Assembly (NCBI GenBank): GCA_041172085.1
Contig: JBEDKQ010000002.1
Span: forward strand, 2,672 to 66,671
DNA from: Pseudomonadota bacterium
GTDB taxonomy: Bacteria > Pseudomonadota > Gammaproteobacteria > Burkholderiales > Burkholderiaceae_C
Reading direction: 5' to 3'
Length of the DNA stretch: 64,000 nucleotides
Shown here: in pieces, positions 1,483 through 7,517 of the stretch
How positions within the stretch are numbered: position 1 is the stretch's first letter
Layout of the letters: each line of letters starts with the position of its first letter
Program-made: the position numbers and the translations under genes
The notes under the pieces: generated by a model
What the model was told of the DNA's origin: nothing
The model's input: only the letters and a program-made list of their open reading frames with translations
Databases searched by the model: none

Positions 1483-3491
<2,009 letters not shown>

Positions 3492-4704: not shown

Positions 4705-5241
4705 TCAGGCGTTGGCTTTTTGGTAATTCGCAATGCCGTCCAAGATTTCTTTCTTGGCTGACTCTGGGCCTTCCCAGCCCAAAATCTTGACCCATTTACC
4801 CTCTTCCAAGTCTTTGTAGTGCTCAAAGAAATGGGCAATGGTTTTCAAGCGCAGAGGGTTCAAGTCTTCTGGTTTTTGCCATTGCGTGTAGATCGACAAG
4901 ATTTTGTCGGTAGGAACCGCCAAGACTTTACCGTCTTCACCGGCTTCATCTTGCATTTTGAGAATGCCAATGGGGCGGCAAGGAACCACCACACCAGGAA
5001 TCAAAGGCACGGGGGTAATGACCAACACGTCCACGGGGTCGCCGTCGCCGCTGATGGTTTTGGGCACGTAGCCGTAATTGGTGGGGTAATGCATGGCCGT
5101 GCTCATGAAACGGTCCACAAAAATAGCGCCAGTGGCTTTGTCCACTTCATATTTCACAGGGTCGGCATTCATCGGAATTTCGATGATGACGTTGAATTGT
5201 TCAGGCACTTTGCTACCGGGGGTGACGTTGTCTAAGGACAT
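4705..5241 (-). CDS. ppa: Soluble family I inorganic pyrophosphatase
   Basis: [29 protein letters not shown]. Confidence 0.95.
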
Positions 5242-5356
5242 ATTTTCAAAAGTCTCAAGAGTTGAAGTAAATCTGTGAAGGTAAGGATTAACCCCGATTT
5301 TACTTTCACAGGGCTTGCTTCTTCGCAACAATCCCTTTTTAATGACTTTGTTGGCC

Positions 5357-5449
5357 AATCGTCTCCTAGTGGGAGCGAGGAAGCAACGCCGGGAGGTGTT
5401 CCTCGAGCGTTGCACCTCCTTTCAGCGGTAACAACTAAGGAGATTGATT
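5357..5449 (+). promoter_or_regulatory. Structured 5' leader of hppA (candidate cis-regulatory RNA)
   Basis: Three 7-bp perfect complementary pairs plus two segments complementary to the SD (see findings). Confidence 0.55.
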
Positions 5450-5450
5450 T

Positions 5451-7517
5451 ATGACAGGCAATTCAGCGTTGATTTTGGCGCTTGTTTGCGGACTGATCGC
5501 CGTAATTTATGGCATTTGGGCCCGTGGATGGATTCTGGCTCAAGACGCCGGCAATGCGCGAATGCAAGAAATTGCAGCCGCGATTCAAGCCGGTGCGGCA
5601 GCTTACCTTTCAAGACAATACAAAACCATTGCCGTGGTGGGCGTGGTTTTGGCCATCTTGATGGGTGTTTTCCTCGACATGACCACGGCCATTGGTTTTG
5701 TCATTGGCGCGGTGCTTTCTGGGGCTTGCGGTTTCATTGGAATGAACGTCTCTGTTCGCGCCAATGTTCGCACGGCACAAGCGGCCACCAAGGGCATTGG
5801 CCCTGCCCTTGATGTCGCCTTTCGCGGCGGCGCTATCACCGGCATGCTGGTGGTGGGCTTGGGACTTTTGGGCGTAACTGGCTTCTACTGGTTCTTGGCC
5901 GGTAACGGCAACCTCACACCCGACGTCAAGTTGTCTGTCATCTTGAACCCCCTCATCGGCTTTGCCTTTGGCTCATCCCTGATCTCTATTTTTGCGCGTT
6001 TGGGCGGCGGTATCTTCACAAAAGGCGCCGACGTGGGCGCCGACTTGGTCGGTAAAGTGGAGGCCGGCATTCCTGAGGACGACCCCCGCAACCCTGCGGT
6101 CATTGCCGACAACGTAGGCGACAACGTGGGTGACTGTGCGGGTATGGCCGCCGACTTGTTCGAAACCTATGCTGTCACGCTCATTGCCACCATGGTGTTG
6201 GGCTCTTTGTTGGTTGCCGGCGCACCTGGTAATGCGGTCATGTACCCGCTCGCCTTGGGTGCGGTGTCCATTGTGGCTTCCATCATTGGCTGCTTCTTTG
6301 TCAAAGCCTCACCGGGCATGACCAATGTCATGCCTGCCCTTTACAAAGGATTGGCCATCGCGGGCGTTTTGTCCCTCATTGCTTTCTACTTTGTGACCCT
6401 GTGGATCATGCCTGACAACGCCATTTCGGCCAGCGGTAGCCAAATGAAACTGTTTGGCGCCTGTGCAGTGGGCTTGGTCTTGACTGCGGCCTTGGTGTGG
6501 ATCACAGAGTTCTACACGGGCACACAGTACAGCCCTGTTCAGCACATTGCACAAGCCTCTACAACAGGCCATGGCACCAACATCATTGCAGGCTTGGGAG
6601 TTTCAATGCGCTCTACAGCTTGGCCCGTGATATTCGTCTGCCTTGCCATCATTGCTTCTTACAGCCTTGCTGGCTTGTACGGCATTGCTGTGGCCGCCAT
6701 GTCGATGTTGTCGATGGCGGGCATTGTGGTGGCCTTGGATGCATATGGCCCCATCACTGACAACGCGGGTGGCATTGCCGAAATGGCCGAATTGCCCAGT
6801 AGCGTGCGTGACATTACCGACCCGCTGGATGCCGTGGGCAACACCACCAAAGCTGTGACCAAGGGCTATGCCATCGGTTCAGCAGGCTTGGCTTCCTTGG
6901 TTTTGTTTGCGGACTACACCCACAAGCTGGAAACCTACGGCAAGGCCATCACCTTTGACCTGTCCGACCCCCTGGTCATTGTGGGCTTGTTCATTGGTGG
7001 CCTTATCCCCTACTTGTTCGGTGCCATGGCCATGGAAGCGGTGGGCCGTGCAGCCGGCGCTGTGGTGGTGGAGGTGCGGCGCCAGTTCAGCGAAATCAAG
7101 GGCATCATGGAAGGTACTGCCAAGCCAGAATACGGCCGCGCGGTCGACATGCTGACCACAGCGGCCATCAAAGAGATGGTGATTCCTAGCTTGTTGCCCG
7201 TGGTTGTGCCCATTGTGGTGGGCTTGCTGTTAGGCCCCAAGGCCTTGGGCGGTTTGCTGATGGGCACCATCGTGACCGGCCTGTTTGTGGCCATTTCCAT
7301 GTGTACCGGTGGCGGTGCTTGGGACAATGCCAAAAAGTACATCGAAGACGGCCATCACGGCGGCAAAGGCTCCGAAGCGCACAAAGCTGCCGTAACTGGC
7401 GACACCGTGGGCGATCCCTACAAGGACACGGCTGGCCCCGCCATCAACCCGCTGATCAAAATCATCAACATTGTGGCCCTGCTCATTGTGCCGCTGGTCA
7501 TGAAGTTCCACAGCTGA
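5451..7517 (+). CDS. hppA: Membrane-bound ion-pumping pyrophosphatase, K+-independent type
   Basis: [26 protein letters not shown] (Lys marks K+-independence), [10 protein letters not shown]; SD AAGGAG at 5437-5442. Confidence 0.95.

Follow-up and report, generated by a model that had tools for sequence, protein, structure and literature searches.

A conserved leader RNA with two predicted, mutually exclusive folds over the hppA ribosome-binding site in one clade of Comamonadaceae

A conserved RNA element occupies positions 5350-5453 of a 64,000-nucleotide stretch of a Burkholderiales genome (contig JBEDKQ010000002.1; the whole stretch is referred to here as the window), where it is the likely leader of hppA, the gene for a membrane pyrophosphatase. 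Sequence comparisons indicate that it is a real cis-regulatory RNA motif, carried by one clade of Comamonadaceae and apparently undescribed, and that evolution supports two folds of the region around the hppA ribosome-binding site that exclude one another. We consider it probable that the element is a ligand-binding riboswitch, acting as a two-state translational ON switch of hppA. It lies in cis within the predicted 5′ untranslated region before one gene class and has a conserved core with covarying stems, and the two folds exclude one another computationally, with partial counter-evidence from the swap, window and forced-P1 tests described below. Its near-invariant bases, covarying stems and an OFF fold that appears to co-evolve over the Shine-Dalgarno (SD) sequence make it a strong orphan riboswitch candidate.

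The motif is single-copy in its own genome. A BLAST search with a 271-nt query matched some part of it in 22 of 24 genomes of the same genus (in four, only 35-40 bases upstream of the motif), and the 18 leaders with hppA on the locus gave a clean alignment. A gapped pattern of the core was found in 100 of 301 genomes of the family and in 76 of 201 genera, with no match for the reversed-pattern control; the conservation in related leaders that the initial annotation of this locus had proposed to look for is thus present, and a few of the 100, such as L040, are chance matches. In a scan of a species collection 115 of the 119 matches listed directly precede hppA, mostly in Comamonadaceae by record title, with carriers titled Limnohabitans, Rhodoferax, Polaromonas, Variovorax, Ramlibacter, Hydrogenophaga, and Acidovorax, which are widespread freshwater, soil, and root bacteria. 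hppA is also present in 54 of 80 pattern-negative family genomes, and 50 such leaders were read, ten with motif variants and 40 without the motif. On a tree of HppA with 87 rows motif presence corresponds to one change with support of 97, and by this sequence evidence the motif marks one HppA clade; it is absent from 27 hppA leaders of other families and from 41 family leaders of the sister clade.

In the other families searched, matches do not rise above chance-level scores. The model R1 gave 20-26-bit matches in 8 of 147 other-family genomes, and the core is absent from each of the four inspected (L267, L268, L270, and L271); the pattern with two mismatches allowed matched 8 of 387 non-family genomes versus 7 matches of the reversed-pattern control. 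A viral match (L055) and three from the collection (L062, L118, and L130) lack the 3′ module, and L071 is a true copy truncated by a contig end. The full motif also stands before a Comamonadaceae-like hppA in records titled Bordetella parapertussis (L122) and Anaerolinea (L136), which more likely represent mislabeled or contaminated bins than transfer.

The element is larger than the interval of the initial annotation (5357-5449), and begins at the predicted transcription start. Its core consists of GUUGGCCAAU, a variable hairpin, and GAGGAAGCAACGC; each position of GTTGGCCAAT(C) and GAGGAAGCAACGC is 95-100% conserved across 165 distinct leaders, giving about 23 near-invariant bases in two blocks on either side of the 10-41 variable bases of the hairpin. 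The most conserved part is GTTGGCC (5350-5356). A -10-like hexamer, T..A.T, is present at -12 to -7 in 137 of 164 homologues (most commonly as TAAATT, TACAGT, TATATT, and TACATT), so transcription likely starts at G5350, seven bases before the earlier interval. The putative -10 here is TTTAAT (5338-5343, + strand), 17 bp from a putative -35, TTGCTT (5315-5320, + strand), that is weakly kept (22 of 164 homologues have TTG[C/A/T] at precisely -35). Assembled contigs from four RNA libraries cover the leader; as some of them span the promoter, the contigs reveal neither start nor strand.

All of the leader features are on the + strand. The predicted +1 begins the 5′ strand of helix P1a, GUUG (5350-5353), which pairs with 5384-5387 in the predicted ON fold and is 100% conserved in the 165 leaders, a set selected with one mismatch tolerated in a 10-mer and with most loci found by exact patterns. 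GCCAA (5354-5358, 99-100% conserved) is the 5′ strand of a near-invariant 5x5 internal loop, and 5359-5378 holds P1b (UCG 5359-5361 with CGA 5376-5378) and the variable hairpin P2 (CUCCU 5363-5367 with GGGAG 5371-5375), whose 5′ strand is also the anti-SD strand in the predicted OFF fold. The switching strand (5379-5389, 96-100% conserved) comprises the 3′ loop strand GGAAG, the P1a 3′ strand CAAC, and then GC; 5383-5389 (GCAACGC) is referred to as segment B. There follow C (GGAGGTG, 5392-5398), the 5′ strand of P3; a loop ending in B′ (GCGUUGC, 5407-5413), an anti-P1 strand that takes B in the OFF fold and reads GCGUUG in 111 of 164 leaders; and C′ (CACCTCC, 5413-5419), the P3 3′ strand. In the predicted OFF fold the region containing the SD (AAGGAG, 5437-5442) and the hppA start codon (5451-5453), 5434-5453 as a whole, is paired with 5357-5370.

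Pairing was evaluated in a sequence-only alignment of 46 diverse leaders, and by swap tests that are alignment-free, tree-aware, and use capped energies over 60 phylogenetically independent pairs, 120 of 159 leaders having enough hppA for the tree. P1a, P1b, and P3 together are 92.5% paired, with 54 doubly changed cells versus 15 in shuffles and 44-64% pairing in slid controls. C/C′ is 90% paired over five pairs and 69% at the sixth, five of the six pairs have changes on both sides, and the swap test is 26:5 (p=1e-4); P1b/P2 gives 32:13 (p=0.003). Among 6844 column pairs in 85 non-redundant leaders P3 takes ranks 1, 2, and 4 for covariation and P1b/P2 ranks 5 and 6; the high-scoring pairs include 5361/5376, where G-C has been replaced by A-U. 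The columns at rank 3 do not pair, and rank 6 scores 24.1, just below the control maximum of 24.5. B/B′ is 92% paired (91.9% of cells), has six of six Watson-Crick pairs in 109 of 164 leaders and two independent double changes (L163; L032/L033), and is broken in L094, L104, and L165. A nested X/X1 hairpin inside B/B′ occurs in many minimum free energy (MFE) structures, yet does not covary (11:15) and was rejected.

The initial annotation had drawn three perfect interleaved 7-bp stems, A/A′, B/B′, and C/C′, in the order A-B-C-A′-B′-C′, and every segment is where it was placed: B, C, B′, and C′ as above, with B′ and C′ sharing C5413, A as CGAGGAA (5376-5382), A′ as TTCCTCG (5399-5405), CTCCTT at 5416-5421, the SD, and an ATG at 5451. 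Three such stems occur in none of 5000 dinucleotide shuffles of 5357-5449 and in 4 of 31,309 genomic tiles of 93 nt; the folding z is -2.24, a value matched by 6 of 200 shuffles. All three stems are, however, kept in only 2 of 164 homologous leaders. The proposed H-type pseudoknot of A and B fails because A/A′ is not conserved (37-41% paired; swap test 9 for and 19 against); the perfect A/A′ stem is, judging from the homologues, a trait of this lineage, and if there is a pseudoknot it would be B-C-B′-C′. Nor does C′ behave as a co-evolving anti-SD, since it covaries with C and not with the SD (C′/SD 17:16, no signal), and C′ with the tail is a predicted residual SD partner when P1 is forced. 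Other parts of the account held: C/C′ covaries as a hairpin, the local fold of the 5357-5370 region with GGGAG corresponds to the covarying P1b/P2, and pairing of 5357-5370 with 5434-5449 is in the MFE structure, is the predicted ground state in most homologues, and co-evolves. What stands of the two-state translational switch is thus a conserved, apparently undescribed two-state hppA leader, to which must be added the invariant 5′ end and a P1 helix (5350-5353 with 5384-5387) competing with B′, both absent from that account.

At three tree depths, native leaders outfold leaders whose 5′ and 3′ halves were swapped at the invariant core (34:15, 30:9 with p=5e-4, and 16:6 pairs), and both controls are null. 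This loss of folding with null controls argues that the long-range OFF rod is under selection and that the two leader halves co-evolve to pair. An unbiased window scan of pairs at a tree distance of at least 0.2 places P3 and P2 at the top, followed by P2-3′/tail and 5′-strand/SD-upstream (z 3.0-3.4 versus a control maximum of 2.3). In fold ensembles of 152 motif leaders, taken from +1 into the coding region, B/B′ has a probability of 0.80, P1a of 0.00, and the SD is 14% unpaired; the 5′ strand is the main SD partner in 114 of the 152, and the unpaired probability of the SD is below 0.1 in 91 of them versus 5 of 58 motif-less hppA leaders. With P1 forced, the SD is more open in 88 of the 152 and less open in 11, and P3 forms (0.61). 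The 5′ end (5350-5356) can also pair with hppA codons 3-4 (5457-5462, GGCAAY, the first two bases 85-91% conserved), which would lengthen the OFF rod into the coding sequence; covariation is not shown for this extension.

When folding is followed by length, P1 is the first structure and the P1 state initially costs 0.1 kcal/mol, rising to 2.5 kcal/mol (interquartile range 2.0-2.9) when B′ emerges, 3.8 immediately ahead of the SD, and 9.6 after synthesis of the start region, as computed with a program that cannot score pseudoknots. In the model this cost profile is that of a co-transcriptional ON switch. We propose that transcription begins at G5350, making the conserved 101-base stretch the likely 5′ leader of the hppA mRNA. 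Its first 39 bases would form P1a (GUUG/CAAC), the GCCAA/GGAAG loop, P1b, and P2, burying the anti-SD strand, and B′ as it emerges would compete for CAAC, the cost being narrowly tuned to about 2.5 kcal/mol. A ligand at the P1 core would hold P1, C/C′ would close B′ into the P3 loop, and the SD would be more open (ON); in its absence B′ would take B, P1 would open, and the rod, whose halves co-evolve, would pair 5357-5370 with the SD and start (OFF). The predicted OFF rod is some 10 kcal/mol more stable than the P1 state, and the decision would be co-transcriptional. The purpose would presumably be to make a proton-pumping pyrophosphatase only when pyrophosphate (PPi) is worth harvesting, beside a divergently encoded soluble pyrophosphatase (PPase).

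Several observations weigh against this reading. P1a is paired in 46 of 46 leaders and shows no covariation because it never varies; its support is complementarity and folding. With P1 forced the mean SD opening is only 0.35 and C′/tail becomes the main predicted SD partner in 76 of the 152 leaders, and in L090 and L106, which are of a Variovorax type, a local hairpin shuts the SD in both predicted folds. With all 57 close pairs included the 5′/SD hits of the window scan do not exceed the control maximum of 2.74, and the outcome of direct 5′/SD swap tests varies with the choice of window (28:11 upstream of the SD, 14:21 downstream, and 20:15, 21:18, and 25:17 for wide windows). Core changes are present in L211, L213, and L214, among the ten homologues found via hppA alone, and the apparent invariance of the core is inflated because most homologues were found with exact core patterns; invariance may also partly reflect recent common descent. 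With one gene context and one clade, the gene association is little informative on the ligand.

Several lineages carry additions to the motif. In L214 (genome G085) an inserted element of ~290 bases, bounded by long terminal inverted repeats, separates P3 from the SD tail, and looks by its sequence like a miniature inverted-repeat transposable element interrupting the switch. One lineage (L034, L035, L068, L095, L109, and L113) carries, between the motif and the SD, an extra structured module of ~55 bases made up of a GGUC..GGACU hairpin and a long stem, for which L034 gives no Rfam match. Leaders of the Variovorax type (L073, L074, L090, L105, L106, L131, L141, L145, and L153) have one inserted hairpin that separates B′ from C′ and another, with GUCUCC as anti-SD, over the SD. 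A leader-peptide attenuator was rejected, including an open reading frame (ORF) from TTG 5351, as no frame is conserved in the 165 leaders; spacer lengths modulo 3 (59/56/50) show no frame bias. An intrinsic terminator was sought at the locus and none was found.

The same two folds could be set by a trans-acting factor, either an RNA-binding protein or a small RNA recognizing the invariant GCCAA/GGAAG loop or GAGGAAGCAACGC, which we regard as unlikely. An internal loop that is small, symmetric, and fixed in sequence is a typical site for a protein, a single origin in one clade fits joint gain with a regulator, and for a small ligand at equilibrium 10 kcal/mol, the distance to the full OFF rod, is a lot to overcome. 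However, neighboring ORFs examined by translation (four of them profile-scanned) include no RNA-binding regulator, a search of both strands allowing one mismatch finds a single further genomic copy of the B core, which lacks the motif context, and the cost during the decision window, 2.5-3.8 kcal/mol ahead of SD synthesis, is compatible with a ligand. Alternatively, the sensor could be kinetic and have no pocket, the fold being picked by transcription speed, pausing, pyrophosphorolysis at the invariant initial sequence (sensitive to PPi or nucleoside triphosphates), or pH or temperature. This accounts for an invariant block that starts exactly at the predicted +1 and for P1 as a predicted kinetic intermediate that is later out-competed, and PPi is itself a product of RNA polymerase. 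It leaves unexplained why the 3′ block is also invariant, since that block lies 20-50 nt downstream at a distance from +1 that is free to vary, and we consider it improbable.

The two remaining alternatives appear less probable still. One differs from the favored riboswitch only in the bound fold, B and C pairing with B′ and C′ together in a B-C-B′-C′ pseudoknot that leaves P1b/P2 intact and the SD free, with the ligand binding the pseudoknot and the released 5′ end. Both stems are conserved, B′ abuts C′, the spacing of B and B′ is sharply bounded below at 28-29 nt, and the nested X/X1 alternative does not covary (11:15), but the perfect complementarity of the invariant 5′ GUUG to CAAC is left unexplained, and we judge this fold very unlikely. 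To the other, that there is no switch at all, we give a slightly smaller chance: the 5′ block would be a DNA operator over +1, where TTGGCCAA is a perfect palindrome at +2 to +9, and the remainder a static stabilizing or dampening leader. But TTGGCCAA is the commonest palindromic 8-mer of the genome (649 copies), a -10 box precedes only 1 of 54 GTTGGCCAAT copies, and both of the mutually exclusive helices have evolutionary support.

Should the element be a riboswitch, its ligand is likely a small anionic metabolite, and gene logic makes PPi the first candidate: a pump that consumes PPi and is under an ON switch would be turned on when PPi is in excess. We would tentatively put PPi, phosphate, or a nucleotide phosphate foremost, while falling well short of an even chance; glutamine or a related acid and a proton or cation seem equally unlikely to each other, some other ligand a little more so, and fluoride the least likely. 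Fluoride is a logical ligand too, because it blocks soluble PPase whereas the H+-PPase is resistant (available text of PMC9959109). We offer only as an unlikely conjecture that this is the first riboswitch sensing PPi or a PPi-linked signal, by way of a rewired glutamine-I-like P1 pocket at the mRNA 5′ end in which B′ supplies the missing C and G. If so, these bacteria would be able to decide whether PPi is dissipated by the soluble enzyme or recovered as proton-motive force, and a PPi ligand would provide a genetically encodable PPi sensor. Glutamine or a relative would instead make this a third architecture around a glutamine pocket, and link PPi energetics to nitrogen status. To our knowledge the split of PPi between soluble and membrane PPases is poorly known, and a 100-base leader RNA makes it directly testable.

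The element sits between two divergent genes, hppA (5451-7517, + strand, 688 aa; NCBIfam NF001951 and TIGR01104, with NF names that read 'sodium-translocating') and ppa (4705-5238, - strand), coding for a soluble inorganic pyrophosphatase (NF002317, E 1e-78), which lies outside the RNA. HppA residues 463-468 are GNTTKA, whose lysine we take to be the determinant of K+-independence in membrane pyrophosphatases. We read this sequence as the K+-independent, H+-pumping type, on the basis of this general understanding, the title of an A460K paper, and the contrast with the GNTTAA motif of K+-dependent membrane pyrophosphatases in the available text of PMC7053079. Two genes lie just past ppa (1483-3448, - strand); judged by their translations, one is PII-like and the other resembles NAD synthetase, and they would be relevant if glutamine is the ligand. 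At 5285-5303 GGATTAACCCCGATTTTAC is kept within the genus, and a related sequence, GGG(A/T)AAACCC.GATTCTA, is present in most family loci, motif-less ones included; the GGATTAACCCCGATTTTAC region probably serves as the promoter of ppa (-10 TAAAAT, minus strand), together with a palindromic element of the GGGTTAATCC type. In the motif-less sister clade (L220 and L222-L260) the hppA promoters often have GG(A/T)AAAC(ACC) and a TAGCAT or TAGGAT -10 box, and the shared sequence is possibly a transcription-factor site substituting for the RNA switch.

There are translational ON riboswitches in which a 5′ aptamer hairpin hides the anti-SD, and the hppA leader resembles these in that P1 and anti-P1 are mutually exclusive and the SD is sequestered in the predicted ground state. 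It differs in that its core sequence and fold match no Rfam 15 family: when the Rfam 15 covariance models, SAH and Li+-I/II included, were run over the window and 15 homologous loci, none matched the motif at E<=10, in agreement with the initial annotation, which had recognized no known family. Full-text literature searches recovered no description of the motif, of a PPi-sensing riboswitch, or of RNA control of hppA; the supplements of PMC11109978, PMC5737381, PMC8632094, and PMC6429828 were outside the search and may list it, and hppA, pyrophosphatase, and Comamonadaceae have zero occurrences in the main texts of PMC8632094, PMC6429828, and PMC11109978.

The fluoride riboswitch (crcB motif, RF01734) is, as proposed for the hppA leader, a small cis-acting ON switch. 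Of the loose resemblance noted in the initial annotation, the GGUGUUC look-alike falls in the non-conserved A′ region, the equivalent pseudoknot, A-C-A′-C′, is not present (A/A′ 37-41%, 9:19), and RF01734 (34 bits) gives the locus no score, the locus not being among its 8 weak own-genome matches. The Bacillus cereus fluoride riboswitch has an intrinsic terminator and an A40-U48 pair capping its pseudoknot, according to the available text of PMC8752731, whereas the hppA locus has no terminator. The Na+-I (DUF1646, RF03071) and Li+ (nhaA-I/II) riboswitches share a two-hairpin leader with GUUG at the base of P1, from the available part of the PMC9337991 supplement, and an association with ion-gradient genes. 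In contrast to Na+-I, the hppA motif does not have the UCAAG P1 strand of the constructs in the available part of PMC9337991 and HppA has a K+-independent H+-type signature; the locus is not among the 6 weak own-genome matches of RF03071 (40.5 bits), and the available main text of PMC9337991 contains no mention of hppA or pyrophosphatase.

At the P1 ends the element weakly resembles the glutamine-I riboswitch (glnA motif, RF01739). Its consensus P1 and flanks read CGUUCA...GAAGGAACGCA, compared with GUUGG...GAAGCAACGCA in the hppA motif, and a G-C variant, CGUUG...GAAGCAACGC, is found in 8 of 119 natural copies and in the crystallized RNA (available text of PMC5393176). The glutamine-I P1 feature, GUUS/SAAC flanked by GAAG and GC(A), is present in the hppA motif, whose switching strand has the same 3′ sequence as the consensus GAAG-S-AACGC. 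Many viral contigs (L292, L295, L331, and others) carry glutamine-I riboswitches, several in tandem, and are the source of the comparison set; a model built here from 41 phage copies was searched against 31 loci, and the hppA motif provides most of the top local matches, yet at 8-13 bits and E 0.3-9 per 81 kb; in the displayed alignments across P1 the 31 middle model positions (the junction) are skipped. RF01739 itself (gathering 35 bits) gave no match in the genome at E<=10, none in a 126-nt scan, and none over the cut-off in 61 family genomes. Unlike glutamine-I, the hppA motif lacks the GGAAGUA junction strand, the three-way junction, and the AGUA/GAA loop E, has GCCAA as the strand opposite GAAG, contains a downstream P3/B′ module, and precedes hppA rather than a nitrogen gene. 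C1 (as the C1:G59 pair) and G22 of glutamine-I contact glutamine (available text of PMC6698751), and neither has a positional equivalent here; position -1 is C in 48% of hppA leaders and would lie before the predicted +1, and it is speculation that B′ could supply an equivalent C (95% conserved) in the fold. The sequence comparison indicates that the hppA motif is not a member of the glutamine-I family, with which it may nonetheless share a related pocket.
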